Source: Chiloscyllium plagiosum (taxonomy: Eukaryota). Taken from it: DNA of 64,000 nucleotides. The notes below the pieces were generated by a model. That model saw only the letters and a program-made list of their open reading frames with translations. It ran no database searches and was not told the DNA's origin. The position numbers and the translations under genes are program-made. This document shows positions 1,290 through 51,828 of this stretch, piece after piece (position 1 is the stretch's first letter; every line of letters starts with the position of its first letter). The DNA is taken from the NCBI RefSeq assembly GCF_004010195.1, contig NC_057712.1:73890696-73954695 (forward strand). The letters run 5' to 3'.

Positions 1290-1703
1290 GGTGGAGCCAG
1301 TGTTGGCCTGGATTGGACAAAGTTAAAAATCACACAACACCAGGTTGTGGTCCAACAGGTTTATTTGGAAGCACTAGCTTTTGGAGCGCTGGTCCTTCAT
1401 CAGGTGGTTGTGGAGGTTAAGATCATAAGACACAGAATTTATAGCAAAAGATTACGGTGTCATGAAACTGAAATGATATATTGAATAAACCTGGATTGTT
1501 AAGTCTTTCATCTATTAGAAAGGGTCGCAAATTTTCGTTCATTAATATGATAATCGCAGAACTTCTTTTAAGTCACTTTCTCGAGGTAACTTAAAATTTT
1601 ATAACAAAAAGTGACAGCTCAGCTCAGACAATGCATTAAAGGTGTGAGGTCAGAATCTGTCTGTATCCCAATCCTGAGTCAGACTGGTTCTATTTCCAAA
1701 GTG
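1290..1703 (-). mobile_element. Penelope-like element terminal-repeat fragment (family A) with degenerate hammerhead
   Basis: Homologous to both arms of the 2566-3442 element. Minus strand 1406-1372 reads CAC CTGATGA A GGACC AGC GCTCC AAAA GCTA GTG. Confidence 0.7.
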
Positions 1704-2565
1704 GATTTCAGTAGGAAAGTGGAAACGAAATCATATTCCAGTATTAGCCTGGGTGAGGAGTTCATAGAACATTTTTCAGATAGTTTCTCAGAACATGCGA
1801 CATTCTTTAAGACCATAAGATACAGGAATGGAATGGCTGCTCTGCTATTCGATCATGATTGATATGTTGGAGAGTGGAAGATGGCTCAGAGTTTGGTTGG
1901 AAATTGTTTCAGGAATAAGTGAAACAATTGCCTGGCATCTATCTGCATTTTGATCAGTTGCCCATCTAGTTTAGGCACAATCCAAAATCTATGTGTTCCA
2001 TCATGATGTTCAATTTAAATTCTTCATTGGAGATGTCTGATTCACTTGCAGCAGCCACATCTTCCTCGTGGCCAACAGCATGGACATTCTTCATTGGGCT
2101 TAGTTGATTTTGTCTTTGGTAGGACTCCTGCAAACTGACACTACAATGTCCAACTCAGTTTTAAGATTTAGATTTCTCTCAGTTAGTAGCTTTCATTAAA
2201 TGGCCTAATTTCACAGGCTGCATAATAGTCTGTTTCTTAAGATGTCATCTAAAACATTGTTAAACTCACAGCATTCTATGAGGTGCTTAAAAGTCATGAT
2301 GAATTCAATCACTAATTCTCCTTCCAGTTAATACCTCTTGTGAAATCTGAAACTCTCTATGTTTGTACAGGTTTTGGTACATAATGGTCTTCAAAAATAT
2401 CAATTGAGTCCTGGCATATTTTGTCACCAGGTTGTCCAGCTGGAGAAGTCTTCTAAATAAATTAATAGGTGTAAACAGGGTGATCTAGTCAGGAGTACTG
2501 AGACATGGTAGCAGGGTGACCAGGGATGGGAACTGAATATCCAGGAGCATTCAGTAATTTAGGAA

Positions 2566-3442
2566 AGTCAAAAATCACATGACACCAGGTTATAGTCCAA
2601 CAGGTTTATTTGAAAACACTAGCTTTCAGAGCTTTCAGGTGTTAGTGAGAGAGGAAGACCTTAGACACAGAATTCATAAGGTAAAGATTAAAGGGTCATA
2701 CAACTCATGCGAACGAATTGAACACACATAAGATAGCTCTTAACTCTTTAATCAATTTGAACAGAGGTGCAGGTTTCAATTGATTAATATGTAAATCACA
2801 GAATTTCTTTCAAGTCACTGCCCGAGACAACTTAAGGTGTTATCAATGTAAAGGTGGTAACACCTTCGGTCAGACAATGTATTTTAGGTGTGAGGTCTTG
2901 TTTGGAATTTGTCTGTGTCTTTTATTTCCAAAGTAAGAGTTTATCAAATACAACATTGACTGACTGTCTACAAATATTGTGCTTTTTGAACAAAACAGAA
3001 TGTATCTGCAAACACAAATCTACAAATTCACCCCACAGATTTATATATATATATATAAGTGTGTGTGTGTGTATGTGTATGTGAGACTGAGTGAGAGAGA
3101 GTTAATGTGTGTGAGGGAGTTTATGCACCTCAGAGAGAGTGCGTTGTTTGAAAGAAATTCTGGGATTTGCATATCAATCAATCGAAACCTGCACCTCCAT
3201 TTTAACTGATTAAAGACTTTAGAGCGATCTTATGTGTGTTTAATTTGTTCACATGAATTTTATGACCCTTCGATCTTTTCCTTATAAATTCTGTGTCTAA
3301 GGTCTTTCTCTCTCACTAACACCTAATAGAGGAGCAGCGCTTTGAAAGCTAGTGTTTTCAAATAAACCCATTGGACTATAACCCAGTGTCATGTGATTTT
3401 TGACCTTGTCAAACCCTGTCCAACACCAGCACCTCCACATCA
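2566..3442. mobile_element. Non-autonomous Penelope-like element with about 250-bp inverted arms (family A)
   Basis: About 2566-2813 is the diverged reverse complement of about 3148-3407. 11-bp TSD TAATTTAGGAA at 2555-2565 and 3443-3453. Internal (TA)n(TG)n microsatellite. Hammerhead remnant at 3320-3354. Confidence 0.8.
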
Positions 3443-3812
3443 TAATTTAGGAAGGACAGACAAAAAGGAAAACACAGAGTTGCATGACATGCTGAAGAGG
3501 AAATTAATGCAGAAGCGAGAAAGGATATTGGTGTTGACTATGTGCAATCTGTATGGGTACAGCTGAGAAACACCAAGGGACAAAAAACATCACTAGGTGT
3601 TATATATAAACTGTAGGGGTGATGTTGGGAATGGCATTAAACAGGCAATTGGAGACACATGCAATAAAGGAGAATCTGCACTTAATGGGAAACTTTACTC
3701 AGCATCTAGATTGGGCAAATCAAATTAGTCAGAATACCATAGAAGAGGAAATCCTGAGTGTGTACGTTGAGGAACCAAGTAGAGAACGGGCCATCCCAAA
3801 CTGGGTATTGTG

Positions 3813-4044
3813 TTGTGGAGTTTGCACATTCTCCCTGTGTCTGTGTGGGTTTCCTCCATGTGCTCCGGTTTCCTCCCACAGTCCAAAGATGTGCAGGTCA
3901 GGTGAATTGGCCATGCTAAATTGCCCATAGTGTTAGGTGCATTAGTCAAAGGGAAATGGGTCTGGGTGGGTTACTCTTCAGAAGGTCGGTGTGAATTTGT
4001 TGGGCCGAAGGGCCTATTTCCACATTGTAGAGAATCTAATCTAA
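3813..4044 (+). mobile_element. HE1-type SINE, 5'-truncated
   Basis: GGAGTTTGCACATTCTCCC...GGCCATGCTAAATTGCCC body and (CTAAT)n tail. Splits the host CR1. Confidence 0.9.
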
Positions 4045-5663: not shown

Positions 5664-5800
5664 ATCATAGAATCCCTACAGTGTGGAAACAGGCTCTGCA
5701 GCCCAACAAGTCCACGCTGACCCTCTGAAGTGTAACCCACTCTGACCCATTTCCCTACTCTATTAATCACCCAACCTGCACATTTTTGGATTGGATTGTG
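5664..5800 (-). mobile_element. HE1-type SINE 3' fragment
   Basis: CATAGAATCCCTACAGTGTGGAAACAGG is the reverse complement of the HE1 tail. Confidence 0.8.
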
Positions 5801-5924
5801 GAGCATTTGTTAGGGTGAATAGCTAAGATAGGAGAGTCCAAAACTAGAGGGCATAGGTTTAAGTTGAGAGGGAAAAGATTGACAAGTGACCTGAAGGCTA
5901 ACTTGATCACACAGGAAATTTGGC

Positions 5925-14183: not shown

Positions 14184-14184
14184 T

Positions 14185-14854
14185 TAGAGTCGTAGAGTTG
14201 TACAGTACAGAAACTTTGGTCACAACTCATCCTTGCTGACCAGATATCCTAGTCCCAATAGCCAGCATTTGACCCATATCCTTCTAAAGATGTGTTGAGT
14301 TCTGCAGGCCCATGATACAGCAATGATACCTAACTATGCAATTCTCAAAGTGTGTTACACCCAACTTCAATCTCACAGGCTTTAGAAACCAAGCATACAC
14401 AATCTGTTGCAATCAATATCTCTTTCAACAGTTTAGAACATAAGAAATACTTTAAACTTGAAATGATTCAGAAAAGATTTACAAGGATGTTGCCGGGTTT
14501 GGAGAGTTTACTTTACAGAGAGAGGATGAATAGGCTGGGGCTGCTCAGATGTTTCCTACTCAGATGCCTTTTAAATGCTGTGATTGTACCAGCCTCCACC
14601 ACTTCCACTGGCAGCTCATTCCATACACGCACCACCCTCTGCACGAAAAAGTTGCCCCTTAGGTTCCTTTTAAACCTTTCCCTTCTCACTTTAAATCTTT
14701 GCCTTCTAGTTTTGGATTCCCCTTCGCTGGGGAAAAGACCTTGACAATTCACCCTATCCATACTCCTCGTGATTTTATAAACTTCTATAAGATCATTCCT
14801 CAGCCTTCGATGGTCTGGGGCAACAGCCTCAGCCTATTCATCCTCTCTCTGTAA
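14185..14854 (-). mobile_element. Rearranged HER1/CR1 3' end
   Basis: Minus-strand pieces at 14185-14289 and about 14553-14854 (RGNFFVQRVVRVWNELP), with a plus-strand piece at about 14452-14543 (IQKRFTRMLPGLE) between them. Confidence 0.85.
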
Positions 14855-15239
14855 TGTCAAAAAGGAAGAGGCAATCAGATTCTAAAGAAGAGGAATTGAT
14901 ATCATCGTTAACGTAAATCATAAAGATCTGACAGACAGAGTGAATTCACTTTAGTATGAGTACTTAAAAGGAGTGTTGTTGGGATTCATGGAATTATATT
15001 TTACTGTGTATTTCAAAGTCTTTAAATTTGTGTTATATGTACATTGATTTATTCCATTTTAACTTCAAAACTCTTCTGCACATCACTTTTGCTTTATTGT
15101 GAAAACCAAATCTGTAGCACTGTCTGTGCCTCAATAAAAGAAGACCTTGTTAAAGCCTAAAAATAAGTTATCTATCAAGCCAGATTTCAGGGTGGCATTT
15201 GATCTATCCAGTAATAACATTAGTTGGTATCAAAATATC

Positions 15240-15617: not shown

Positions 15618-16430
15618 CTTCCATTCACTGAATGGCAGTTGATCTATGATCACAAGAAACCATCTTGTGGACATTTGGCTCCCAGACAGCTGCATGATGC
15701 ATTTGTCCTTTGAGAGTCCATATGCTTCAAAACTTCTGGTCAATGTCCAGATTCTTTCAGGAGTGGCTACTAAAGAATGAGGGTTATTTTCTGAGGAATT
15801 GGCTTTTCATAGAATCCCTACAAAATTCCAACTCTCACAAACACTAACCAGTGCATCCATTAGTATAAAAAGAGGCCATTTGGTCCATCAATTCCACACT
15901 GATCTTCCTAAGCACATCCCATCCTAACCCCATGATCCCACATCTACCATGGTTAACCCATTTAGGCCTACTCATTCTTGGACACTACAGGACAATGTAG
16001 CATGGCAAATCCACCTAATCTGCGCATCTTTAGATTGTGGATAGAAACTAGAGCACCCAGTGGAAACCCATGTAGACATAGGGAGAATATGGAGAGTAAC
16101 CCAAGGCTGGAATCAAACCCAATCCTTGGCATTGTTGCAGCAGTGCTAATCACTGAGCCACTGTGGCACCCACATGACGCTCATGCTTCTGATGTTCATT
16201 AAGCACTCAGATTCAGATGCACTATAGCCAGAACTATCTACAACATGGACCTGCATTAAAGAAGCTCTTGTGCACCCACTGCTGTTATTGGTCAGGTATC
16301 GTGTTCCAGTCCAAGTGTCTCATACTGTGGTCAGCTGCTGTGCACTCCACAATATGAACATCCAAAGACGGCAGAAGTTGGAAGAAAGGGAGAACTTGGA
16401 ATGCTACTCTTCCTCAGAGGGGGTTCTCTA
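15617..16430 (+). pseudogene. PIF/Harbinger transposase fossil, split by an HE1 SINE
   Basis: Frame-broken motifs in canonical order: DFHSLN.QLIYDH, P.S(C)HDAFVL.ES, EWLLKNEGYFLRNWL (compare GWLLGDKGYPL..WL), RCTIARTI and VSHTVVSCCALHNM. Confidence 0.75.
15865..16171 (-). mobile_element. HE1-type SINE
   Basis: HE1 head and body on the minus strand. Confidence 0.85.
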
Positions 16431-16431
16431 G

Positions 16432-17195
16432 CCGCTCATTCCATACACGGTCCACCCTCTGTGTGAAAAAGTTGCCCCTTAGGTCTCTTTGATATCTTTC
16501 CCACCTCACCCTAAACCTATGCCCTCCAGTTCTGGATTCCCCTAACCCAGGAAAAAGACCTTATCTATTTATCCTATCCATGCCCCTCATGATTTTATAA
16601 ACTTCTATAAGGTCACATCTCAGCCTCTGACACTCCAGGGAAAACAGCCCCAGCCTATTCAGCCTCTCCCTATCGTTCAAATCCTCTAACCTTGGCACAT
16701 CCTCGTAAACCTTTTCTAACCCTTTCAAGTTTCACAATATCCTTCTGATAGGAGGGAGATCAGAATTGCACACAATATTCCAAAAGTGGCTTAACCAATG
16801 TCCTGTACAGCTGCAATATGACCTCCCAACTCCTATACTCAATGCTCTGACCAATAAAGGAAAGCATACCAAACGCCTTCTTCACTATCCTATCTACCTG
16901 ACACTCCACTTTCAAGAAACAATGAACCTAAACTCCAGGATCTCTTTGTTCAGCAACAATCCACAGGACCTTGCCACTAAGTATATAAGTCCTGCTCTGA
17001 TTTGTTTTTCCAAAATGTAGCACTTCACATTTATCTAAAGTAAATTCCATCTGCCACTTCTCAGCCCATTGGTTCATCTGATCAAGATCCCATTGTACCC
17101 TGAGGTAACCTTCTTCACTGTTCATCACACCTCCAATTTTGATGTCATCTGCAAACTTACTAACTATACCTTCTATGTTCACATCCAAAACAATA
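16432..17195 (-). mobile_element. HER1/CR1 LINE RT C-terminal fragment
   Basis: SKFADDIKIGG..WAEKWQMEF..DKCEVLHFG in ORF 16928-17209, with downstream CR1 motifs. Confidence 0.92.
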
Positions 17196-18908
17196 CATGA
17201 ATGAACCAATTAAAATTCTGGATACATTTCACATAGCCCAATGTAAGTTCACTGTAAAGTAAGTGATGTAATATTAGATATATACTAGAAAGTTTGGAAA
17301 GGAAATAGGTAATTCCAAACTCCTGGACATACCCGAGAGTCTCACCAAATTAAGCATCAATCACAAAGAGAGCTAAACCCATAACAATATTTCAAACAAA
17401 CTCTGTTGGTTTCTAGGACTCCTGCTGGATATTCCCACTTGACCCTGGTATGGGTTGATTACTCGATTTACTGTTTGACATTACGGAACAGTGTGTATCA
17501 TTCAAGTAGTGCCAACCAGCGCGAATGATGTGATCATCTGGGTGCACAAGTTCTGGAGAATTGCCAAATCTAAAAGAATGGTACATTCTCATAAGCTGAA
17601 TGTAGGACAATTCCTAATTGCTTTCATGGTTACTGTGAACAGCTGAAAAATACAAGATTTTCTGGACTCCTTCCAGTAAAAGTCCAGAGTGTGGTCAGTT
17701 GGATTGTGATCCTGACGACATCTGTTCCTAGCTGTCTGAAACAAGACATTAACGATCCCTCAGACTGCACGCTAATGCTGATCACACAAGAAAAACCAAC
17801 ATGTAAAGAAATCGTTCCCTGGTCCAATTCACTCCCTGTCAATTCTGCAGCTCTGTAAATGGTGAGACCTTTGACCTAGAAATCTGTAATCTTTCTCTGG
17901 ATTTTCCACCTAACCAAGGAACCATCATGGGCAGCAACATCTTGCACTAACACGATTCCTAAGTAAACTGGCTCTGATGCAAATACCTTTGAAGCATATA
18001 TTTATCCTATCCAGAAACATGCTCACAAGTTGCAATATGTAGATAGTATGACATTCATCTATCCCATACACAACACCACATTCATTAAAAAGTATAATGA
18101 TGAAAAGACCAAAATAAAAATTAAAAATACAACTTGCTAAGAAAGTGAATTCAAGGCATTTCAAGTTGATTTAGCAGACAGACCTGAGGCTGAAACTTTG
18201 GGCCCCGCCAAGGAGATGGAACTGGAACATACTGGTACCAGCTGGTGGATTGGTTTTCTGACCGCATTTCCAGCACTAGGTATTTTTGCTGAGGCACATT
18301 TGTAGCTGCCAGGGTTACCTGGTCCCACAAGGTAGGTAACCAATCAGCTTCATTCAGAATTTCGTTAACCACAGTTAAAAGAAGATCAATTGGGATTTTT
18401 AGATCAGCTTCAGTTTTCCTATCTGACAGGGTTGGTTAAACCCCTGGGTGAGAGCACCCAGTCACAGGCTAAGTGATGGTGCTGGTGGGGAGAGAAATAT
18501 GCTTATAGAAATCCTGTAGATTCTCCTTATTGGGAGGTGACTGAAGCCTAAGGTCTTACTGTAGACGGTCTCCCTTCTGCCACAGTGGTACCTGTTTTTC
18601 ATTTGAAGTTTAACAATGTTGGAGGATGCCCCCACTTTGAACTGCCCTCTCAGTTATATGATGTAAGGTATGTGATTCATTGAGAGGATTTTTGGATTTT
18701 GAACCAAGTGGGTTCTCTGTAAGTACGAAAAAATTAATTGTTAACTTGTGTGTATTTCTGTAACCATAATGATTAATTTTAAAACAGACTAGGAGACAGA
18801 CTCTACCTCAAGAGTAATGGGCTTTTGTTTGCATTATTTGTTGTAAAACACAGCCAGCATAAACAGTTGTGCATTAGACTGCTGGAGAAGGTTCTAGAAT
18901 GGATTTCT

Positions 18909-19382
18909 TTTTGCTTGGGGAAAATAACTGTAGCTTGAAGACAGCTGTATTGGTTTCAATTTCACAGAAATCTTGGCTGATGTTGGATGTGTATACGAGT
19001 TGCTCCCAAAGAAGGGAGATATGTTCAGGTATAAGTTTCCTCGATGTTCCAGATCAGAAACGTTTGGGTAAAATTCTGAAAGGCCAATTCGAAGCAGAGA
19101 AAGTCGAAGCACATTTGCATTAAGACTCATAGAATCAATGCAATTATTATTTGCTTGGGAAAAATACTGCATATTGAAGACAGCCGTATTGGTTTCAGTT
19201 TCGGAGAAGTCTTAGCTGATGTTGGAGGCGTATACTGATTGCTCCCAAAGAGGTAAGCTTTTCTAACTGTTAAAATATAAGTTTCCTCAATGTTATGAAC
19301 CAGAAGCGTTGCATAAAATCCTGAAAGGGTTAACTTAAGCTGAAAATGTCGAAGCTCATTTGTATGAAGACACATAGAATCA
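18909..19382 (+). repeat. Diverged two-copy tandem duplication, period about 240 bp
   Basis: TTTGCTTGGG..TTGAAGACAGC.GTATTGGTTTCA..GCTCCCAAAGA..TATAAGTTTCCTC..CATAGAATC occurs at about 18909-19137 and 19150-19382. Confidence 0.85.
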
Positions 19383-19588
19383 TTGAGTCATAGAATCATG
19401 CACTATAGAAGATGTCCTTTGGCTCACTGAATCTGCACCTACAAAATTGCTCTAAATTTGAGTCCACTTTCCAGCCTTGGATCATAGCCTTGAAAGTTAT
19501 GACATTTCAAGTGCTCATCCAACTGGTTTCAAAAGGTTGGGAGGTTTCCTGCCTCACCTACCCTCCCAGGCAGTGCATTCCCGACTCT
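19373..19588 (-). mobile_element. CR1 3' end (second subfamily; similar copy at about 56195-56370)
   Basis: CATAGAAT tail repeat; the minus strand encodes NALPG..V..G.L..F..LDEHLKC. Confidence 0.7.
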
Positions 19589-21354: not shown

Positions 21355-21485
21355 ATTCCTGACAAAGGTCTTTTGCCCGAAACATCGATTCTCCTGCTCC
21401 TTGGATGCTGCCTGACCTGCTGTGCTTTTCCAGCACCACACTCTTCAACTCTGATCACCAGCATCTGCTGTCCTCACTTCCACCC
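21355..21485 (+). mobile_element. Short Penelope-derived insertion (family B) starting at a degenerate hammerhead
   Basis: ATTC CTGACAA A GGTC TTTT GCCC GAAA CATC GATT. TSD CAATAAATC at 21346-21354 and 21488-21496. Confidence 0.75.
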
Positions 21486-21639
21486 TGCAATAAATCCATG
21501 CCAAAGTTCAGTGTATGGGGGGTTACCTTTACATTAGGTGTTATCTTGGTGAGAGAGGTGTTTCGGAGATCTTGTCCTAACAAGTCACAACCTCACCTAA
21601 AGTATAATCACTGAAGTGTGCATCTGTAAATGATAAACC

Positions 21640-25479: not shown

Positions 25480-25960
25480 TTACAGCACAAAAACAGGCCA
25501 TTCAGCCCAATAGATCTATACTGGTGCTTATGATAACCATGAGGATGTTCTCACTCTTTATTTTGTTTGTCAGCATATTCTTCTACTCTGTTCTCTGTTG
25601 TGCTTATCTGGATTCATTGTTAATTCTTCTTGCCTCAACTACTTCTCATGGGCTTTATTCCTGATGAAGGGCTTTTGCCCGAAACGTCGATTTTGCCTGT
25701 CCTCGGATGCTGCCTGAATTGCTGTGCTCTTCCAGCACCACTGATCCAGATACTTCTCATGGCAGCATATTCCGCACTGTAAGCATTCACTGGATAAAGA
25801 CCATTCTCCTGAATACCTTGTTGTACTTATTTGGGTCGATCTTATAATTATTCCATTTAGTTCAAATCTTGACTGCAAACCAGAAATATTTCCCTTTTAA
25901 CACTTTAATACTTTTAAAGATCACTATCAGTGCTCTCTTTTCCAGAGAACAGAACCCAAA
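25480..25960 (-). mobile_element. Old CR1 3' end hosting the 25652-25750 insertion
   Basis: CAGCACAAAAACAGGCCATTCAGCCC is a reverse-complement CR1 3' UTR; the degraded body continues across the insertion. Confidence 0.55.
25657..25692 (+). ncRNA. Minimal type-I hammerhead ribozyme motif with intact core (family B)
   Basis: AUUC CUGAUGA A GGGC UUUU GCCC GAAA CGUC GAUU. All core nucleotides present, 4-bp stem II with tetraloop, GUC cleavage triplet, palindromic ACGU stem III. Inside a 99-bp insert flanked by the 12-bp TSD TACTTCTCATGG. Confidence 0.8.
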
Positions 25961-30465: not shown

Positions 30466-30999
30466 AAAACAAAAACAAGAATTTTAAATCAAAGCATTCT
30501 CAGTCCAAAAGCCGAAGAAGGTCAAAAGACACTTGAGTAATGGACAGATGGGACTTGGTGCGCGTTACAATGCAGGCAGAGTTTTAGACCTGTGACTTGT
30601 TAAGGAGGTCACTGAATCGTCAAGGCTGGAGGTAACAAAAGCATGAAAGATTTGACTAGTGAATGGACTGTAACAGAATCAGAGGTGAACATTAAGTAAA
30701 AAGTGGCCTGTTCAGGAAAACTCAAGTTTAACTTTTGCAGCTATTGTTCAGAGAATTTTAAGAATGTTTGAGGTTTGACATTACTACCAGTTTCTTTGAT
30801 AGAAGAAGAAAGTATTTCTTACCCAATTAAGCTAACTGAGCTCAGACATCCACAGATTGGGGTCATTTGAAATGGCCTCAGTAACACTGGACCAGAGAAG
30901 TTGGAAAACCAGCCCATTGTGACTGTTGATGAATGACCCCTGGTGGAAAGCATTTGTATTTTAACTCAATGTTTGCATACAGTCAACCATAAATTATAT

Positions 31000-32440
31000 T
31001 GCTTCAGTATTTACTGTGGAAAAGGATATGGAAGATATAGACTGTAGGGAAATAGATGGTGACATCTTGCAAAATGTCCAGATTACAGAGGAGGAAGTGC
31101 TGGATGTATTGAAACGGTTAAAGGTGGATAAATCCCCAGGACTTGATCAGGCGTACCCCAGAACTCTGTGGGAAGCTAGAGAAGTGATTGCTGGGCCTCT
31201 TGCTGAGATATTTGTATCATCAATAGTCACAGGTGAGGTGCCNNNNNNNNNNNNNNNNNNNNNNNNNNNNNNNNNNNNNNNNNNNNNNNNNNNNNNNNNN
31301 NNNNNNNNNNNNNNNNNNNNNNNNNNNNNNNNNNNNNNNNNNNNNNNNNNNNNNNNNNNNNNNNNNNNNNNNNNNNNNNNNNNNNNNNNNNNNNNNNNNN
31401 NNNNNNNNNNNNNNNNNNNNNNNNNNNNNNNNNNNNNNNNNNNNNNNNNNNNNNNNNNNNNNNNNNNNNNNNNNNNNNNNNNNNNNNNNNNNNNNNNNNN
31501 NNNNNNNNNNNNNNNNNNNNNNNNNNNNNNNNNNNNNNNNNNNNNNNNNNNNNNNNNNNNNNNNNNNNNNNNNNNNNNNNNNNNNNNNNNNNNNNNNNNN
31601 NNNNNNNNNNNNNNNNNNNNNNNNNNNNNNNNNNNNNNNNNNNNNNNNNNNNNNNNNNNNNNNNNNNNNNNNNNNNNNNNNNNNNNNNNNNNNNNNNNNN
31701 NNNNNNNNNNNNNNNNNNNNNNNNNNNNNNNNNNNNNNNNNNNNNNNNNNNNNNNNNNNNNNNNNNNNNNNNNNNNNNNNNNNNNNNNNNNNNNNNNNNN
31801 NNNNNNNNNNNNNNNNNNNNNNNNNNNNNNNNNNNNNNNNNNNNNNNNNNNNNNNNNNNNNNNNNNNNNNNNNNNNNNNNNNNNNNNNNNNNNNNNNNNN
31901 NNNNNNNNNNNNNNNNNNNNNNNNNNNNNNNNNNNNNNNNNNNNNNNNNNNNNNNNNNNNNNNNNNNNNNNNNNNNNNNNNNNNNNNNNNNNNNNNNNNN
32001 NNNNNNNNNNNNNNNNNNNNNNNNNNNNNNNNNNNNNNNNNNNNNNNAGGCTGAGGGGTGACCTTATAGAGGTTTACAAAATTATGAGGGGCATGGATAG
32101 GATAAATAGACGAAGTCTTTTCCCTGGGGTCAGGGAGTCCAGAACTAGAGGGCATAGGTTTAGGGTGAGAGGGGAAAGATATAAAAGAGACCTAAGAGGC
32201 AACTTTTTCACGCAAAGCGTGGTACTTGTATGGAATGAGCTGCCAGAGGCTGTGGTGGAGGCTGGCACAATTGCAACATTTAAGAAGCATTTGGATGGGT
32301 GTATGAATAGGAAGGGTTTGGAGGGATATGGGCCGGATGCTGGCAGGTGGGACTAGATTGGGTTGGGATATCTGGTCAGCATGGACGGGTTGGACCGAAG
32401 GGTCTGTTTCCATGCTGTACATCTCTATGAGTATGACTCT
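31000..32440 (+). mobile_element. HER1/CR1 LINE spanning an assembly gap
   Basis: LKVDKSPG..YPRTLWEARE before the gap and RLRGDLIEVYKIMRG..RGNFFTQ..WNELP after it. CTCTATGA-type tail. Confidence 0.92.
31243..32047. other. Assembly gap (805 N)
   Basis: Run of N bases. Confidence 1.
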
Positions 32441-33261
32441 ATATTGACATGAGGAATAACAGTGGCAGAAGAAAGATATCTTTTTGTGACTGTGTTTCAT
32501 ACAAATGTCACCTCTAGCATGGAGCACACGGGCATTGTGCTCCACCCAGGATCAAAGGTATCTCTGTGCTGTTCAACTTTCCTCAAACAGCTGTTCTTAG
32601 TGCATCCTGAGATCCACACTCAGTGCCACACATCGCCACATGCGCACTCTTGACCTCTCTCTCTCCATCAGCACTACTTCACGCTGGCTCAGAGCTGTCT
32701 TGCCCTCTAGTTCCACTTTCCTCCTGCTCATTCAACCTTCTATTTTCGTTTCAGGCATTAAAGAACCCAAGATGCAACAACGTAGAGATACCCACATACC
32801 TCTGGTACTCCCTCCCCTCCCCTTCTATCTGCTTCCATCCCCTCTCCTAACCCCACCTTCTGTTATGTATTTACTATGTATTATTTACTAACCCTTGTGA
32901 TCTTTCACTCTCTCATGCTGAACCCAGCAAAGGTCTCAGTTTTATCCCTCTGCGTCCTCACCTTAATGAACATTGGGCTTGACATGACATTACTCTTTTT
33001 CCGTTGCCTTGGCCTCTGTGCCCATTTCTTTGGATATGAGTCCCCTCCCCTTCCCACGGATTCCTTTGCCCACCTCCAACACTTTCCCTCCAACTGGACG
33101 ACTTCCCTCTGCCTTTTCCCTGCACTTGAACTGTTCAGTGAGAACTGTCAACGTGACATTGGTCGCCTCAATTTCTCTGCCCCTTTTACGCATTCCAACC
33201 TATTTCCCTCTAGACTGACTGCACTTCATGCTCTCAGATCCAACCCTGACTTGGTTCCTTC

Positions 33262-33605
33262 AGGTGGCCCAGTGGTTAGCACTGCTACCTCACAGCATCA
33301 GGGACCCAGGTTCGATTAAAGCCTTTGGGGGAATGTCTGGGTAGAGTTTGCATGTTCTCCCCTTGTCTGTGTGGCATTTCTCCGGGTGCTCCGGTTTCTT
33401 GCTACAGTCTAATCATGTGCAGGTTTGATGGATTGGCCATGTTAAATTGCCCATAGTGTCCAGGAAGACGCAGGCTTGGTGGGATAGCCATAGGAGATGC
33501 AGCTTATATGGATAGGATGAGGGTTGGGGTGGGATGCTCCTTGGAGGATTAGTACAGATGCAATGGGCAACATGGCCTCTTTCTGCACTATAGGGATTCT
33601 ATGAT
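33262..33605 (+). mobile_element. HE1-type SINE
   Basis: GGTGGCCCAGTGGTTAGC head, GGTTCGATT B box and GGGATTCTATGAT tail. Confidence 0.9.
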
Positions 33606-33607
33606 CT

Positions 33608-33912
33608 GTGTCGAGAGTGTGGTGCTGGAAAAGCACAGCAGGTCAGGCAGCATCCGAGGAGCAGAGGAATCGATATTTTGAGCAAGAGCCCTTCATCAGG
33701 AATGAGGTTTGTGAGCTGAGAGGGTGGAGAGATAAATGGGAGGGGGGTGGGCCAGCTGAAGGTGACAGGTTGGAGAGGAGGGTGGAGCGGATAGGTGGGA
33801 AGGAAGATGGACAGGTAGGGCAGGTCATGAGGGCGGAGCCGAGTTGGAAGGTTGGAACTGGAGAAGGTTGGGGGAGAGGAAATGAGGAAACTAGTGAAGT
33901 CCACATTGATCC
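33608..33912 (-). mobile_element. Penelope-like element 3' fragment (family B) with degenerate hammerhead at about 33667-33703
   Basis: Minus strand ATTC CTGATGA A GGGC TCTT GCTC AAAA TATC GATT, preceded by a C-rich UTR and the endonuclease-end signature NVDFTSF. Confidence 0.8.
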
Positions 33913-33989
33913 ATGACTTTGTAATTAAGTCTGCTGACAAGGTTAGTACTGTTGTTGTCTGGTGGACTGACCTCTACATTTCAGAGGCA

Positions 33990-35033
33990 AAAAAAACTGT
34001 AGATGCTGGAATCCAAAGTAGGTAAGCAGAAGGCTGGAAGAATCCAGCAAACAAGGAAGCATCAGGAGGTTGGAGAAGTTGACAGTTTGGGTATAACCCC
34101 TCTTCAGGAATGGAGGTGGGAGTAGGGGGAGCTGCAGATAAAGAGGGTGTGGGGAGGGAGGGTTTTGGGTGGGGAGACGGGTGGAGTGGTGAGTTACTGA
34201 TAGGTGAATACAGATGGTGAATACAACCTGGTTGGTTGATGGGAGAAATGAATCCAGTAGGTAGCTGGAAGGATTGGTCGGAGGGATGGATGGGAGGAGG
34301 CGGGGCTGGAAAGGGAGTTGGGGGATGGGAAGGGAGGTTATTTGAAATTGGAGAACTCAATGTTGAGTCCTCCTGGCTGTAGGCTGCCCAGGCGGAAGAT
34401 GAGGTGTTGTTCCTCCAATTTGCGGTCTGATTCACTGTGGCAATGGAGGAGTCCAAGGATGGACATGTCAGAAAGAGGATGGGAAGGGGAATTGAAATGG
34501 GCAGTGACTGGGAGGTTAGGCTGGCCGTTATAGGCCCGGCTGAGATGCTCAGCGAAATTTGCCCTGAGTTTACGTTTGGTCTTACCTATGTAGAGAAGAC
34601 CACATCGGGAGCACTGCATGCAGTAAATAGGTTGGAGGAGAGACAGGTGAATTTCTGTCGTGAGAGTTGGGGGGTTGGGGGGGATTCGTGGGAAGTTTGG
34701 TGCAGACCAAGGAGTGACAAAGGGCACGGTCCCTGCAAAAGGCAGACAAGTGTGGGGAGAGGAAGATGTTCTTGGTGGTGGGGTCTAATTGGAGTTGGCA
34801 GAAGTGTTTGAGGATGATACTTCAGATGTGGAGAGTTGTGGGGTCAAAAGTGAGGACAAGGGGAACCCTGACTTTATTATGTTTGAGTGGGTGAGGGTGG
34901 TCTCGAGCAGTGGGCTAGGGAATGAAGGAAGTGAGGTGGACTGCTGTCTGGATGACAGAGGTGGAGAAAAGCAAGTTGTTTAAAACGGGTAGACATCAGG
35001 GATTCTTAGGAGTGGAACGTCTCCTCGTCCAAG
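33990..35033 (-). mobile_element. Penelope-like element 3' portion with GIY-YIG endonuclease
   Basis: ORF 34338-34727 reads IYCMQCSRCGLLYIGKTKRKLRANFAEHL..VTAHF..RKLEEQHLIFRLGSLQPGGLN. Hammerhead remnant CTGAAGA at about 34078-34112. Confidence 0.9.
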
Positions 35034-35828
35034 CAGAAGCTGAGCACCTCAGATACCTCCTCCTATCTTCCCCCTGGACCATGACCCCACCATTGAACAT
35101 CAGGCTATTGTGTCCACAATGGTCACCAACCTCATTTCATCTGATTCCAGCCCCCCGCAACTGCCTCCAAGCTCAGAGTCTCCTAACCCTGTTCAACTCA
35201 CTTCTACATCCTTCCCAAAATCCACAAACAGGAATTCCCGAGCAGACCCATTGTTTTAGTTCCACAGAACTCATCTCTTCCTACCTCGACTCGATTTTTT
35301 TCTCCCTTGTCTAGTCTCTTCCCACTTATATCTACACTTCCTCTGACGCTTTACATCAGTTTCAAAATTTCCAATTACTGGGCTCCAGCCACCTCCTCTT
35401 TACTATGGAGGTGCAATGCCTTTACACCTCCACTCCCCCATCAGGATGGTCACAGAGCTCTCCACTTCTTCCTGGAACAAAGGCCAGAAACGTCCCCAAC
35501 CACCACCACCCTCCTACACCTGACCGAGTTCATTCCCCACCCTGAACAACTTTTAACCCCTCTCACTTTCTTCAGGTCAAAGGTGTTGGCATGGATAACC
35601 CTTTAGACCTTAGTTTAGCATCATTTCCAAAGGTGCATGCTGCTCCTGGAATATTCTTACATTATTATTCCAATTATATCAGTACAATGAACACCATCGA
35701 GGAGAATGTTTGTAAAGGGAAACTATTGTTTCTGTATTTTATGCTTTCAGATGTTGAACTGAAGCATTCTGGGAGCAGGCATAATGGATTGAATTTCCTC
35801 TCCAACAACAAAATAAACCAAATATTTT

Positions 35829-37380: not shown

Positions 37381-37399
37381 TTCTTGTGCATTCTTCAAG

Positions 37400-39240
37400 C
37401 CAAATGATGACAATGTTCATCAACTGGTGTGTTTGATAGGTTGGGTTCCTGTGGATACACACTAAAACTCCTGAGTGAGATTTTTAGGGTCACTTTATAA
37501 TGTCTCCTCTGACTGACATTAGCATACCCTACACTTAAGTACTCATTCGAAAATTCACTTTGGTAAGTTAATGTCAGGCATTCTGGCGAAATGATCACTC
37601 CAACTCAATTGCAACTGTCTTAATATGGTGTGGATATGTGACATACCAACTCAGATGAGCACTTCAGTATCCGGTATTCTGTCCTGCAATTTGATCTGCT
37701 GAAGGCTCTGAAGGCAGCTCAAGTGAAAGTGGTCGAGGTTCTCGATAGGGACAGTAAAAGAGAGTGTACTGCCAAAATAAGTGGACTTATCTGTTGTGAA
37801 CAGGATCTGGTCAAGGAGCGAAGGTTTGGGCTTGAACTAAGGATTTCTTGGAGTACGTATGTGCATCACTTCAGTTTTCCTCAAGTTTACAAGTAGAAGT
37901 TGCCACATGCATAGGAGAACAAACCCCTGTTACATTGTATGACCAGCTCTGATCCAGCAGCTAGTGCACAATCTTTGACAAAGAAGAAATCACAAAGTGT
38001 GTCTTTGGAGACCCTAATCTTAGGCTAGAGTCATCTCAGACTGAGCACCTTCTCATCCACGCGATATCAGATTTCAATTCCTGAATCACCCTCATAGAAG
38101 ACATTGGAAAATATGAAAGACATGCTGAAGAGGGTTGATGCCAGCATGTAACCCTGTTTAATTCCATCATTGGAATAATTCTTTGAATGGGTCAGTGGAC
38201 TCACTGACCTTCAGGATACATATGAGCATTCCATCATGAACCTGTTGAACTTCTCAAGAGTAGCTGAACTTTTCCATTGACTTCCAAAAGCCGCCAGGGC
38301 TGGTTATGTCAAAATCTTGGTCATGTCAACAGAAATAGTAAAGGAGTGTGTTCATTTTTGGCACTTTTCTTACAGCTGTCTACCTGACTATCGCAGTGGT
38401 TCACTGACCTTTTCTGAAACTATACTGATTCTCTGACAGAAAACCCTGAGACATGATGTTGCGCATGGCAAATCAGAAGGATTCTGGTAAAGATTTTGCC
38501 AACAATGAAGAGGAGTGAGATTCCATGATGATTTTCACAAGATTGGTGAGTCTCTTTCCACTTGTAGGGGCAGATAATGTAGGCAGGAGAAAGTGAGGAC
38601 TGCAGATGGTGGAGAATCAGAGTTGAAAGGGGATCTGAGGAGCAGGAGAGTTGACATTTTGGGCATAAACCCTTCATCAGGAATTCAACTCTTCTGCACC
38701 TTGGATGCTGTCTGATCTGCTGTGCTTTTCCAGTGCCACCCTTTTCGACTCAAGATAATGTAGACATCCTGATATATTTATGGTATCCTTCCCTATTCCT
38801 ACATAAGCTTCAAGTCACATCACCAACTGAACATATCACCCTCCACTTAATATGAATGCATTTTCATCCTTCTTTTTCTACTTAATCACTTCTCTCCCTC
38901 ACTTCACTGAAGTGGGGTGTACTTTCTAATTGTCATAAATACATACTTTGCTAATTTCATCATCGCATAAAATACTTCATCAGGGGATATGCAGCTGGTT
39001 ACCATTTATAGAAAACTTCTACTAATCAAACACTATTTTTCGCTGAGACCCAGTATGGACTTAATGGTTTCAATGCAGTATTCATTCTTCAAACTATTGC
39101 ATGTTCTGTCCAAAGTTCATTCACTGACCCTGAGGTTTGAATGATTAATTCATTGCATTCTTATGACTGATGACAGAGGTCATCTCAGTGGCAATCTCAG
39201 CTACTGGAAGAATATGTTAACTGCACTTGATTCATAAAAT
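37400..39240 (-). mobile_element. RTE-clade (BovB-like) LINE, degraded
   Basis: CENHHGISLLFIVGKIFTRILL (compare NYRGISLLSIAGKILARIL), plus ESV.GFR and FVDMTK.FD remnants. Confidence 0.75.
38583..38752. mobile_element. 170-bp inverted Penelope-derived insertion centred on a hammerhead (family B)
   Basis: 11-bp TSD AGATAATGTAG at 38572-38582 and 38753-38763. Minus arm 38583-38684 carries CTGATGA..GCCC AAAA TGTC; plus arm 38685-38752. Confidence 0.85.
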
Positions 39241-42750: not shown

Positions 42751-45674
42751 GATTTAATTCATCTTGAATCTAAAGAATCACATTTTAGACAGTTACTCCA
42801 TGAACCACAGCATCAGAATTTGGTTTTATTGGAATAAAAAACAGCCAGATTTTATATTGTTTTCATAAAATGGTAATTAACTCATCTCACATGCTAAACT
42901 GATCACATAATCATTCTCATAAATGTGTGCATGTAATAGTGACTGAGCAGTTAGCAATGTTGAACATAATCACTGTAATCAATTAAAGCCCATTTAACAG
43001 TGTACATTTAATGTGACTACACATAATCACTAGCAAGAAGTAAAATAACTTACTTGTGGGTGCTTACTTGGATTGAATTCTGAGAAATCAATGCCTAGAA
43101 GACAACATCTATCATTTATATTATTAAAATCAACATAATATTTAGTCATGCAAATGTTGTAAGCTAGATCACCCAAAATCCAACCTAAATTTGTGGTTCT
43201 ATTAAAGGAGCTTCATTGATGCTGTACTGTTAGGTATTATTATTTTTAGGGAATGTGCAGAAAGAAATGTGAAGTTAAATTGTAACGGGCCATTATTTGT
43301 TGCCTTGGTAATGGGGGTGGTAATGGTGGACACTAGTTATTACATAAAAAATCCAATACCTTCAGGTGAGGGACAGACTTTTCATTGCATATAGATAACC
43401 AAAAATTCCTTTCCAAGGTGTGGAACTCTGAAGCTAACTCCACACAACTAGCAATTCACTACCTATCTCACCACTGAAATGCACTGAATGTGTGAAGTTG
43501 CTGTATTTATGCTGTAGATACGAACCACATATTGCTCCACTAAGTTAAATCTTGCTCGTACAGACAGAATACAATGTAGAAATGTCATAATTACAGGTTA
43601 CTGCTCTTCAATACTCCTAATACTGAAAACTTACAAGTGTCAACTTTCATTCCTTTAAGTGTGAATTATTGGTGCAGTGTTTGAAAATGTCAAATTTAAA
43701 ATTAAAATATATTTGCCAACTTTCTTTTTACCACCCTTTCTCTCTCTTCCTGTGCCTGGTTTGACATGCACTCACTGTAATTTGAACTTAAATCGTCAAG
43801 CAATAGTTGAGGATGCTAATTAGCTCTAGATTTTTCTTTTAAATCTAAGCACTGAAATATTATTGATAGCTCAACATATAATCCATATAAGTGGCTTTTT
43901 GTATTATAATGAAGTTTATAGACATTATTTTTTTTTTCATTTTAGCAACATTCTACATAATGTTAGATGCAACAGCTTAAGTATCTTTTGCGCTAACTAC
44001 ACCCTGTTTTTGGAGGCTCAGAAGCCTATTAACATAATGCAAGGCAATTTCACACTCTGAAAGAATGTACCACACAAAAACTTCCAGCTTCATTCAAAGC
44101 TGTGACAAAACACAGTTTTAGACAGTTCATAAATTCCATTCGGATACTGTGCCAATTGTTTGAGTAACTGCATTTCACAAACTTATTCAAGGGGGATCAG
44201 TTTGAGTTTCTTTAAATGTGATGTTATGTAGACAGCATTTGCATCTCATTATCTCAAATCTCAATTATTCTAATAATTTTATTTGTCAATTTGAAGCATA
44301 AATTCTAAAATTCTTAGCAGCATTGATTTCTAATACTTTTCCCAACGGAAGATAATAGACAGCGATTGCTGTAAAATTTACACTACATGAGGTAAGTTAT
44401 TTTGCAAAAATGTTTTTTACCAATCATAACTTTGCACAAAAGCACCTTTCAGTAAATATTATCACCATTCTATATCTTCTGAAAGCAGTTTAATACAGAC
44501 ATACAAGGTGACAAGATGAGGTTTAGATGTCAGTCTGTTCAATCTAATTCTTCTAAATAATCTTCCCTTCCCATTAGATTTCTGGCTTAAATGAATCAAA
44601 TCTTTCCAAGTGTCAATTATCTAATAAACAAAGAAATATTTTCTGCCTGCAAATATGGGGTTTTCACCAAGAAACTAAGGCTGGCAGAGCAGGAACACTT
44701 TCAAGGAATTTCCCAGATCAATTTTTTTTGTTGGAAGCAACCTCTAGTTGGTCATCATTGTCCAATAGTACAGCTTTTTCACAGGCCTGAATAGTGTTAT
44801 AAGAATCAGACTGAAAAGAATGATCCCTCTGCAGGCTCCCTGATGCACTCAGTAACAACAATTATTTTTTTAAAATGGTTGTAATGCAAATTTAAAAAAA
44901 GTTCTTGTTTAAAGAGATACTGTATGATTCTCCCTAGATGCTACTTCATATGAGTGGATATACACTATTGTGTTGGAGGTTTACATTACAACTGAGTTAT
45001 AAATATATTTTGCATGTCTAATAATCTTCTAATCCTGTGTCTGCAGTTTTAACAATGATCTCAGTTATGTTAATTGGGAGACACTAAAATAACAGGCCAA
45101 AGAATATTATATAAATGTGTTAGTCTGCAAGCATTAATATATCCTGCGTTAATTTATAAGCTTTGGTCTCAAATATATTTTTTACAAAAATTCTTCATTA
45201 TATATAAAACATTGACAAGTGATAATTTGTGGTGTCTGCTCTGAGTTCCTCCATCAATACTACCACTACATTCCTGTGAAAAATTCACTCTGTGGTTACA
45301 GGGAGCACTTGTTAGAAAACCACAGGAATGCAATGCTATTTCCCATCACTGCTGAACAGTTTCATTCTACAACCTAACATCAAAACACAAGGGGAATTGC
45401 TTGCTGCCATACGTCCAAATAACATCTTACTTTAAGAACTTATACTTTTACCTGCACTCACCATATTTGTTGAAAATTAATATTAGTGCCCTGCCAAGCG
45501 GATAAATATATTTCCAGTTCCTGGTTACTTGCTTATAATTTTTTAAAATGTGATTTTGCTTCAAAGGTTATGTTTCACTATTACTCTTAAGCTGCTCTGA
45601 AGATGATTTATCTTCCTGTGCTTTCAAGGTACTACATGCCTCTTCTGATGCAAACTGAAAAAATATTCAACTTT

Positions 45675-46093
45675 GAGCTATAGGGAGAGGTTGAATAGGC
45701 TGGAGCTGTTTTCCTTGGAGGGTCGGAGGCTGAGGGGGTGTCCTTATAGAGGTTTATAACATTTTGAGAGGCATGGATAGGATAAATAGACAAGGTCTTT
45801 TCCCTTGGGGTGTGGGAGTCCAGAACTAGAAGCATAGGTTTAGGGTGAGAGGGGAAAGATATAAAAGGGACCTAAGGGGCAACCTTCACACGCAGAGGGT
45901 GGTACATGTATGGAATGAGCTGCCAGAGGAAGTTGTGGAGGCTGGTACAATTACAACATTTAAAATACATCTGGATGGGTATATGAATAGGAAGGGTTAG
46001 AGGGATATGGGCCAAATGCTGGCAAATGTCCTCAGCATGGAGTAGTTGGACCAAAGGTTTTGTTTCCGTGCTGTACATCTCTGTGACTCGTGA
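45675..46093 (+). mobile_element. HER1/CR1 3' end
   Basis: Nearly colinear with 32048-32440. Confidence 0.92.
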
Positions 46094-47006: not shown

Positions 47007-47418
47007 TATAGAGTAGAAGAGTCTTACTGCAATTCTACAATGCACTGGTGAGATTACATCTGGAGCACTAAAATAAAATTATTTCATTGGAGGCATTTCG
47101 GAGAATATGCACGATCTCTGGCATGGAGAGGTCTTATGAGCAAAGATTAAATAGGTTGGGAAATCTACTCACTGCAATTTAGAAACATGACAGCTGATCG
47201 CATTCTTAATGGGCTTGACAGGGTAAATGCTGAATGGATGTTTCCCCTCATGCAAGAGGCTAGGACCAAACAGCATAGTCTCAGAATAAAGGCTGCTAAT
47301 TGAAGACAGATTTCTTCTCTCAAAGGGTTGTGAGTCTTTAGAACTCCTTGCCACAGAGAGCAGTTGGGTAGAGTCCTTGTGTATAATTAAGGTTGAGATG
47401 GATAAATTCTAGATCAAT

Positions 47419-47718
47419 GGGCAGCACGGTGGCTCAGTGGTTAGCACTGCTGCCTCACAATGCCAGGAACCTGGGTTCAATTCCCACCTTGGGCAACTGT
47501 CTGTGTGAAGTTTGCACATTCTCCAGTTTCCTCTGGGTGTTCTGGTTTCCTCCTACAATCCAAAGGTGTGTTGGTTAGATGAATTCGCCATGCTAAATTG
47601 CCCATAGTGTTAGGTGCATTATTCAGAGGTAAATGTAGGGTGGGTTACTCTTCAGAGGGTCAGTGTGGACTTGTTGGGACAAAGGACCTGTTTCCATACT
47701 GTAGGAAAACTAATCTAA
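47419..47718 (+). mobile_element. HE1-type SINE, full length
   Basis: A box TGGCTCAGTGG, B box GGTTCAATTCC and (CTAAT) tail. Confidence 0.93.
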
Positions 47719-50346: not shown

Positions 50347-51313
50347 CAAAGTCTGTGAGAAGATTTGTAGCTCGGTGCTCGTTGTTGTGGCTCTCTTCGC
50401 CGAGCTGGGAATTTGTGTTGCAGACATTTCGTCCCCTGTCTAGGTGACATCCTCAGTGCTTGGGAGCCTCCTATGAAGCGCTTCTGTTTGTTTCCTCCGG
50501 CATTTATAGTGGTTTGTCTCTGCCGCTTCCGGTTGTCAGTTCCAGCTGTCCGCTGCAGTGGCCGGTATATTGGGTCCAGGTCAATGTGTTTGCTGATAGA
50601 ATTTGTGGATGAGTGCCATGCCTCTAGGAATTCCCTGGCTGTTCTTAGTTTGGCTTGTCCTATAATAGTAGTATTGTCCCAGTCAAACTCATATTGCTTG
50701 TCATCTGCGTGTGTGGCTACTAAGGATAGCTGGTCGTGTCGTTTCATGGCTAGTTGGTGTTCATGGATACGGATCGTTAGCTGTCTTCCTGTTTGTCCCA
50801 TGTAGTGTTTTGTGCAGTCCTTGCATGGGATTTTGTACACTACGTTGGTTTTGCTCATGCTGGGTATCGTCTTTCCCTTAGGCATCTGTTGATGAAATTG
50901 CGGGGGTATCCGTTTTTGGCGAATACATTGTATAGGTGTTCTTCTTCCTCTTTTTGCAGTTCTGGTGTGCTGCAGTGTGTTGTGGCCCTTTTGAACAGTG
51001 TCTTGATGCAACTTCTTTTGTGTGTGTTGGGGTGGTTGCTTTCGTAGTTCAGGACTTGGTCTGTGTGTATGGCTTTCCTGTATACCTTTGTATACACAGA
51101 TTCTATCAACAAACACATCGACCTGGACCCAATATACCAGCCACTGCAACGGACAGCTGGAACTGACAACTGAAAGTGGCAGACACAAAGCACTATAAAT
51201 GCCGGAGGAAAAATCACAGAAGCGCTTCACAGGAGGCTCCCAAGCACTGAGGATGTCACTTAGACACATCTGCAACACAAATTCCCAGCTCGGCGAAGAG
51301 AACCACAACAATC
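50347..51313 (-). mobile_element. Penelope-like element (family C, Poseidon-like): RT C-terminus plus GIY-YIG, with an inverted terminal copy
   Basis: VYRKAIHTDQVLNYESNHPNTHKRSCIKTLFKRA..NGYP and NVVYKIPCKDCTKHYMGQTGRQL..RIHEH..REFLEAWH. About 50380-50605 is inverted at about 51097-51311. 10-bp TSD AATAGGTGTT at 50337-50346 and 51314-51323. Confidence 0.93.
50420..50459 (-). ncRNA. Minimal type-I hammerhead ribozyme motif (family C)
   Basis: GCA CUGAGGA U GUCACCU AGAC AGGGGAC GAAA UGUC UGC. CUGANGA and GAAA intact, stem I GCA/UGC, GUC triplet. Confidence 0.72.
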
Positions 51314-51395
51314 AATAGGTGTTTTCCATACCTGATGGCATGAGAGTTCTTGGAATCTGGTTCCATGTTAAAGATACAAAGGAACAGAACTTCTG

Positions 51396-51693
51396 ATTAG
51401 ATTAGATTTCCTACAGTGTGGAAACAGGCCCTTCGGCCCAACAAGTCCACACCGACCCTCCGAAGAGTAACCCACCCAAACCCATTTCCCTCTGACTAAT
51501 GCACCTAACACCATGGCCAATTCACCTGACCTGCACATCTTTGGACTGTGGGAGGAAACTGGAGCATCCGGAGGAAACCCACGCAGATGCGGGGAGAATG
51601 TGCAAACTCCACACAGTCACCCGAGGTTGGAATTGAACCTGGGACCCTGATGCTGTGAGGCAGCAGTGCTAACCACTGTGTCACAATGCTGCC
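51396..51693 (-). mobile_element. HE1-type SINE, full length
   Basis: Complete head, body and (CTAAT)n tail. TSD-like CTTCTGAT at 51390-51397 and CTTCTAAT at 51694-51701. Confidence 0.93.
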
Positions 51694-51828
51694 CTTCTAA
51701 TGAAGAGTCACCGGACTCAAAATGTTAAATCTGCCTTATTTCCAATAATGCTGCCAGACCTGCTGAGTTTTGCCAGCAATTTCTATTTTTGTTTCAGATC
51801 ACCAGCATCTACAGATCTTTGTTTTAAC
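51694..51828 (+). mobile_element. Short Penelope-derived repeat (family D) with degenerate hammerhead
   Basis: TT CTAATGA A GAGTC ACCG GACTC AAAA TGTT AA, followed by an ATGCTGCCAGACCTGCTGAG..CCAGCA tail related to family B. Confidence 0.7.

Follow-up and report, generated by a model that had tools for sequence, protein, structure and literature searches.

Mostly broken minimal hammerhead motifs in probable Penelope-like retroelement insertions of the shark Chiloscyllium plagiosum

The 64,000-nt stretch of contig NC_057712.1 of the shark Chiloscyllium plagiosum analyzed here (the window) holds 11 short motifs with the layout of minimal hammerhead ribozymes (min-HHRs). We conclude, with a probability of roughly 0.9, that they are minimal type I hammerheads located in the terminal repeats of 5'-truncated insertions of Penelope-like retroelements (PLEs), mostly broken and likely inert. 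The first-pass annotation had already read them as PLE min-HHRs, and this reading is borne out by the position of the motifs 3' of protein frames, by target-site duplications (TSDs), by inverted arms, and by 3' tails. The motif is of a known kind, of which the shark PLE families are new members.

The coordinates and strands of all 11 motifs listed in that annotation proved correct. Allowing no mismatch in the core, a structural descriptor found 2 matches (C3 at 25661 on the plus strand and at 50456 on the minus strand) and none in each of the 10 dinucleotide shuffles scanned as a control; with at most one core mismatch it found 4, against 0 to 1 per shuffle, and with two core mismatches 15, against 4 to 13. 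Since the last count barely exceeds the range of the shuffles, the decayed copies are supported by nhmmer homology to the intact ones and not by the descriptor. The core is intact in two copies (25657 and 50420), and only 25657 combines it with a Watson-Crick palindrome. Seven copies have a substituted core (G12A five times, G5A and G8A twice each), some with two or three changes (listed copy by copy in Table 1), and those at 2620 and 51244 have 10-nt deletions running through stem II; in all, 9 of the 11 are damaged in the catalytic core or in stem II. The family forms given in the first-pass annotation are reconstructions of motifs that are indeed present, with 25657 and 50420 as the only copies free of core changes.

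The core elements CUGANGA, GAAA, and UH occur in type I order, and the majority form of family B is restored by public reads and contigs. The extra base claimed between A9 and G10.1 is seen in all nine length-intact copies, in eight of which the pair 10.1-11.1 is G-C, the remaining one having G-U. The palindrome, closed by the pair 15.1-16.1 and devoid of loop 3, reads AGCU in the three family A copies and ACGU in 25657. Because that pair encloses just two bases, stem III cannot form as a hairpin within one motif, in agreement with the earlier proposal that it needs a second copy. The earlier description of this architecture as unusual is not supported; the same features make up the published consensus of metazoan PLEs, CUGANGAH-G..C-GAAAN-palindrome-NUH, and Cervera & De la Pena 2014 (PMC4209133) count the palindrome, the G10.1-C11.1 pair, a base inserted between 9 and 10.1, and the occurrence of many covarying families per genome among the general features of min-HHRs. 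In particular, the window copies share with the min-HHRs described there in PLE pseudo-long terminal repeats (pLTRs) the type I topology, the extra base, the G10.1-C11.1 pair, the loop-less palindrome 15.2-16.2, the presence of several families per genome with mostly solo truncated copies, the opposite-strand pairs 100 to 700 bp apart, and the location in the 3' repeat of elements encoding a reverse transcriptase (RT) and an endonuclease (EN). They differ in being mostly decayed and in the stems of family B, where stem II is short, at 4 bp, and stem I is weak and includes a U-U mismatch; furthermore, neither the 56 motifs of Fig. S3 nor Table S1 of that paper includes a shark or ray. The same source reports motif numbers of about 4,000 for coelacanth and 9,000 for Xenopus, falling into 6 and 8 major families, respectively. 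The claim that the motifs are high copy in the shark genome is borne out here.

The motifs had been assigned to at least four families and counted as about a dozen. The stems do differ as described, but family B, the variant at 34078, and family D have a homologous 3' flank, and it follows that there are only three lineages (A; B with the 34078 variant and D; C), D being a subfamily of the B lineage. The same flank led us to reject D as a family independent of B. Moreover, the copies at 2620 and 3320, as well as those at 50420 and 51244, are the inverted arms of single insertions, so that the 11 motifs derive from just nine insertions. As for the covariation proposed earlier, the stems differ between lineages and yet stay paired: A and B have G-C at 10.2-11.2, where D has A-U and C has U-A, and the pair 2.1-1.1 is C-G, U-A, or A-U, depending on the lineage. 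This apparent covariation, however, comes from three or four lineages, and among the compensatory differences between lineages only that of B versus D is backed by flank homology. A sequence alignment of the cores did not follow the structure and misplaced family C, and pairs were therefore counted by coordinates.

In family C and in the B lineage, the motif lies 3' of a protein frame in the sense orientation. The strand of the 50420 motif carries, upstream of it, the C-terminal part of an RT followed, past an internal deletion, by a GIY-YIG domain. This frame has 9 homologs at an E value of ≤0.001 among 114 candidates, several of them with RT domains, and the best ones (83 to 92% identity) come from Chiloscyllium and Hemiscyllium. 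The linker Cys motif is absent in all four kin checked (P0001, P0002, P0004, and P0007), and these four form a group with the window frame (100/100); its absence fits the Penelope/Poseidon clade as defined in PMC8557442. Upstream of the 34078 motif is a GIY-YIG remnant with 25 homologs among 85 candidates, and in the tree a 100/100 split separates this frame from that of family C. On the 34078 side, a CX2-5CxxC linker is present in four of five homologs (P0010, P0011, P0013, and P0016) and absent in the chimeric P0012. With respect to the clade definitions of Craig et al. 2021 (PMC8557442), the B lineage resembles Neptune in the C-terminal GIY-YIG domain, the closest homologs with the CX2-5CxxC linker, the inverted 5' piece, and the tail, whereas the linker is deleted in the 34078 copy. 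The 33667 copy begins in the last codons of a Neptune-type frame, and public reads join that point to endonuclease sequence. Family D is tied to PLEs only through its flank homology to B.

The insertions bear further marks of PLEs. Exact TSDs occur at five of the nine motif-bearing insertions (lengths in Table 1, the 10-bp one enclosing 50347-51313), while among 2,000 random pairs of window sequences 24 shared at least 9 bp and 1 shared at least 11 bp. Inverted arms are present in three TSD-flanked insertions, and every lineage has 3' ends of two lengths, which differ by 38 nt in A, 36 nt in B, and 35 nt in C. These tail differences match the 30- to 40-bp tail described as common to and unique to PLEs (PMC11167929, PMC8557442). 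The optional tail is the main basis for calling family A a PLE, to which the motif, the inversion, and the TSD also contribute. A close parallel to family C is the Poseidon element PAc of Anolis carolinensis (Frangieh et al. 2024, PMC11167929). Family C shares with it the lack of the linker Cys motif, seen here in the kin, an AUG in frame where stem II begins, a pair of 3' ends that lie about 35 nt from each other within the start of the open reading frame (ORF), and insertions that run across the uncut motif. PAc, however, is intact and was tested in vitro, whereas the family C copy is 5' truncated, internally deleted, and known from sequence. Expanded PLEs have been reported in the whale shark (10.1101/443036), and the literature used for comparison also includes PMC6765202 and PMC2377424. 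Our literature search combining Penelope, Neptune, and Poseidon with cartilaginous fish gave no match; most subscription papers and Repbase lay outside its coverage, and absence from print is not implied.

Table 1. Coordinates of the motifs and of the insertions that carry them
Positions	Strand	Feature	Remarks
1372..1406	-	Family A motif, G12A (dead core)	Inside A-family repeat ~1284-1790
2566..3442	both	One family A insertion, inverted arms	11-bp TSD 2555-2565/3443-3453; arms differ by 38-nt tail
near 2612-2640	-	Family A minus arm, stem-II-deleted remnant	
3320-3354	+	Family A plus-arm motif, G5A, G8A, A9G	
21355..21487	+	133-bp family B insertion	Begins exactly at stem I; 9-bp TSD; long tail end
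21355-21390	+	Family B motif, G8A, palindrome ACAU	
25652..25750	+	99-bp family B insertion	12-bp TSD; short end
25657-25692	+	Family B motif, sole fully intact copy	C3 25661, H17 25688
33602..33915	-	Family B 3' piece	Final codons of Neptune-type endonuclease frame, then 3' untranslated region (UTR), motif
33668-33703	-	Family B motif, G12A, palindrome AUAU (the 33667 copy)	
33985..35040	-	5'-truncated Neptune-type PLE	RT-EN linker 34968-34672, GIY-YIG remnant 34628-34341, 3' UTR, motif, tail
34077-34111	-	B-lineage variant motif, G12A, A15.1C	The 34078 copy
35154..35710	+	Inverted decayed RT fragments	Beside the Neptune-type element 33985-35040; P0013 E 2e-7, P0007 E 0.003
38583..38752	both	170-bp family B fold-back insertion	11-bp TSD; plus arm 38684-38752 starts near cleavage site
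38649-38684	-	Family B motif in minus arm, G12A	
50347..51091	-	5'-truncated Penelope/Poseidon-type PLE	RT C-terminal part 51091-50867, internal deletion, GIY-YIG 50861-50490, motif, tail
50420-50459	-	Family C motif, core intact, palindrome AUGU	
51092..51313	+	Inverted arm of family C insertion	10-nt-deleted motif near 51244; 10-bp TSD 50337-50346/51314-51323; arms differ by 35-nt tail
51695-51728	+	Family D motif, G5A and G12A	Within 51695..51830; 3' flank homologous to family B; adjoins ~300-bp interspersed repeat ending at 51694
54899..54989	-	D-like remnant, 3' half of motif and flank only	Absent from first-pass annotation
57306..57390	+	B-lineage 3' tail remnant	Absent from first-pass annotation

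Several observations weigh against the PLE interpretation or parts of it. Four of the nine insertions (1372, 33667, 34078, and 51695) have no TSD of at least 9 bp. The deletion of the linker motif in the 34078 window copy leaves the Neptune call to its homologs, with Nematis still standing as an alternative; the tree itself has 11 rows, contains no named reference PLE, and leaves out P0006, P0017, and P0021, in which the anchor pattern was unmatched. Both window fragments score under the curated Pfam cutoff for GIY-YIG (E values of 0.13 and 0.025). For family A, there is no PLE ORF in the window, the protein search scored 0 of 23 candidates, and motif scans gave 0 matches in genome contigs and 0 in viral contigs. 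With the Rfam covariance models, neither the window nor two stretches of 181 bp gave a hammerhead match at an E value of ≤10, and Rfam is thus unusable as the check that the first-pass annotation had proposed. Folding is also unfavorable: the predicted minimum-energy fold of the intact B copy is a noncatalytic hairpin (-11.4 kcal/mol), while the stem I plus stem II fold of a slightly shorter B slice scores -5.2, and cofolding of this copy gave no double hammerhead. Forced 4-bp self-duplexes score -1.7 (ACGU), -2.5 (AGCU), and +2.6 (AUGU); minimum-energy folding, it should be said, models hammerhead junctions poorly. Finally, the anole Poseidon, the sole reconstituted PLE, could insert without cleavage, which itself required protein (PMC11167929). 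No full-length element (an ORF between two pLTRs, partial tandem) is present within the window, and a scan for the B-lineage motif returned 18 metagenome loci, none like the window, and 0 in viral contigs.

The state of the copies points to neutral decay at CpG sites. The CpG observed/expected ratio of the window is 0.22, and, with states read by eye, the CpG at C11.1-G12 is retained in 3 of the 11 copies that hold the site (the remnant at 54960 being counted) and the CG at 15.2-16.2 in 1 of 9. All the changes at these two sites are CG to TG, CA, or TA, while the CpG-free AGCU of family A is retained in three of three copies. The family C arms read UG and CA at 15.2-16.2, and the shark homolog P0009 has an Arg where the window has a Cys; on these sequence grounds, we infer ACGU to be ancestral for C, and the CpG decay points to the same form for D. 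The AUGU that had been taken as the family C palindrome is thus a decay product, and AAAA likewise reflects CpG decay and is not a family feature. Aligned to the 33667 copy, public reads of RNA run X21 restore the family form: among the variants listed (40 of 231), 796 of 988 reads carry C15.2 at 33675, and 832 of 895 bring back the G-C pair of stem II at 33681. The loose-end majority of the reads has G12 and ACGU. As the CpGs fall on critical positions (C11.1-G12 and 15.2-16.2), methylation-driven deamination would destroy the core early. Core positions appear to decay like flanking neutral sites, and all window copies are likely inert where they lie.

Two alternatives to the retroelement origin or fate of these copies have to be considered. 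That the motifs are chance matches read into repeats could be argued from the two-mismatch descriptor count, which is near the shuffle range, and from the silence of Rfam; this explanation has almost no probability in our view, being already contradicted by the strict descriptor (2 matches versus 0 in 10 shuffles), by a motif position identical to the published one, 3' of PLE frames in the sense orientation, and by the finding of every published ancillary feature. The first-pass annotation had also supposed that ordinary annotation overlooks the motifs as RNA, and Rfam does miss them, but the repeats are recognizable as PLE ends. It had furthermore spoken of a ribozyme repertoire, and one could suppose that the shark keeps the copies by selection to process host transcripts. 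One copy is fully intact, and family B sequence appears on both strands of RNA run X21 (3,183 of 12,955,460 records matched); reads from both strands, however, fit the passive inclusion of repeats, and a second RNA run, X22, gave 0 matching reads. Moreover, 9 of the 11 copies are broken, some by the very G5A and G12A changes that had been proposed as negative controls, the changes track CpG decay, and the two nearest intact cores, separated by about 25 kb, come from different lineages. We thus regard a selected repertoire as very improbable and the copies as relics of retroelements. A relation to animal non-LTR retrozymes can be envisaged from the type I hammerhead in a short pLTR-related unit that both share (PMC7229834; bioRxiv 10.64898/2026.07.22.740005), and retrozymes are reported in one chondrichthyan genome (bioRxiv 10.64898/2026.07.22.740005); as far as these sources describe them, retrozymes are tandem units with mostly canonical hammerheads, whereas the window copies have TSDs, inversions, and PLE tails. 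We rejected tandem retrozymes, as no head-to-tail hammerhead array was present among 7 tandem-repeat rows or in the self-comparison.

For the PLE copies, a mechanism can be proposed that starts from an active tandem element, in which the 4-nt palindromes of two motifs (ACGU in B, C, and D and AGCU in A) would base pair to make stem III. In the master elements, the cut made by the resulting double hammerhead would fall after base 17, and cleavage would probably be slow or protein assisted, as described in other species. The RT of the element would start at one of two sites about 40 to 100 nt downstream and copy uncleaved RNA through the motif, then stop early or fold back; insertion would take place at an endonuclease nick, truncation and inversion would yield the short pieces, and the inserted copies would decay neutrally, with CpG deamination killing the core. 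The predicted cut site is contained in all core-bearing copies, which were thus copied from RNA left uncut there. Core mutants of the anole Poseidon still inserted, and its RT began at two internal sites matching the tail (PMC11167929). Minimal motifs of S. mansoni are described as uncut in monomers and weakly cut in dimers and trimers (PMC4209133). In run X21, there was no site where many molecules begin or end; this polyA single-cell library is uninformative for cleavage ends.

It is possible, though not probable, that in the masters the motif acts mainly as a protein-assisted fold or as a translation switch at the start of the ORF, which is compatible with the PLE origin and differs in mechanism alone. 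The extra base of family C supplies the U of an AUG (A9-U-G10.1; 50448-50450, minus strand) that is in frame with the RT ORF, and the protein P0009 runs through the motif with 34 of 38 residues identical, but its annotated start is 18 codons further upstream, and in families A, B, and D the extra base is A and not U. The ORF of the anole Poseidon also begins at stem II, and its ribozyme cut only with added protein (PMC11167929); together with the uncut origin of all core-bearing window copies, this speaks for such a role. On the other hand, a palindrome is retained in the intact form of every lineage, as predicted by dimer pairing, and low cleavage of dimers and trimers is known for the Schistosoma motif (PMC4209133). 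A second question concerns the 5' boundary of family B, as three of four copies (21355, 38649, and 25657) start 0, about 1 to 4, and 5 nt upstream of stem I (binomial P ≤ 0.003 under an assumed exponential truncation with a mean of 100 to 400 nt, post hoc and with n = 4). One could suppose that family B also spreads as a short nonautonomous unit of motif plus tail, 100 to 135 bp long, with a defined 5' end, similar to a SINE (short interspersed nuclear element) or a retrozyme and mobilized by Neptune proteins, instead of arising through random truncation of full elements. Recurrent opposite-strand joints between 33664-33665 and 33701-33707 (54 contigs of X1, 19 of X9, and 3 reads of X21, among the first-listed joints, 15 of 537) would agree with this, as would the roughly tenfold fall in raw-read depth, from about 575 to 55, across the motif 5' edge of the 33667 copy. 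Nevertheless, contig depth regains the motif level upstream (33768-33823), so that the reference copy may simply be divergent at this place, and we rejected the drop as proof of boundary clustering; the breakpoint at 33664 is biased by two mismatches at 33665-33666. Furthermore, only four copies are involved, picked once the pattern had been noticed, no tandem array of motif units occurs within the window, the units do not span from cut site to cut site as in retrozymes, and the 33667 copy extends into the endonuclease frame. We therefore hold a separate short unit to be unlikely. A transcription start or a splice acceptor at the motif 5' edge would explain the pattern equally well; in D. virilis, an intron ends at helix I (PMC4209133). 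With similar reserve, one may speculate that the uncut hammerhead fold sets the end of family B copying, the RT stopping or folding back on the complement of stem I at the motif 5' edge. If this improbable explanation were true, the stop would yield very abundant motif-plus-tail inserts of 100 to 170 bp, and the PLE hammerhead would shape insertions without cleavage being required.

Other features of the window touch on these elements. The inverted RT fragments at 35154-35710 we infer to be a 5' inversion of the adjacent Neptune-type element. The 33667 element begins about 70 bp past the 3' end of the 34078 element on the same strand (33915-33985), and two B-lineage subfamilies thus lie nearly head to tail. 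More decayed fragments, at 32810-33277 and 30995-31141 on the plus strand, match the Neptune-type homologs P0021 and P0018, respectively; the former lies tail to tail with the 33667 copy, with a ~300-bp repeat between them. This interspersed repeat, which we take to be of tRNA-SINE type, is found at 51393-51694 and in about 10 further places (3814, 5664, 8773, 15841, 19750, 26771, 33263, 35829, 47419, and 59299). Its copy ending at 51694 abuts stem I of family D, with a 5-bp repeat at 51390/51694, and may have inserted into the 5' edge of that motif. Shark, ray, and skate gene models named as a kinase (P0003), a nucleotidase (P0005), a divergent kinase (P0017), and a receptor (P0032) contain PLE-derived stretches, which are either annotation artifacts or exonized repeats. 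Metagenome contigs unrelated to the window have min-HHR-like motifs with a paired stem II (L002 601-673, L007 601-660, L016 601-673, and L017 601-673).

Elsewhere in the window, there are 3' pieces of one family of long interspersed elements, presumably of CR1 type, with RT-like frames (1-1014, 14190-14860, 16424-17069, 32048-32430, 45672-46086, and 56798-57314), the longest open frames being 1-456 and 460-1014. A young local duplication at 60512-61222 (60915-61027 equals 61110-61222 over 113 bp; 60512-60609 and 61025-61119 are 95% identical) may be real or an assembly effect. An old tandem duplication of about 240 bp, 76% identical, lies at 18898-19385, and an assembly gap of 805 N at 31243-32047.

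The present analysis extends the 2014 result on PLE hammerheads to PLE families of a shark. Counting such "ribozymes" in genomes is misleading: two CpGs coincide with positions needed for catalysis and for pairing, and most copies are dead as a result. A genome rich in short TSD-flanked copies could show whether the boundaries of insertions follow the edge of the motif rather than the cut site.

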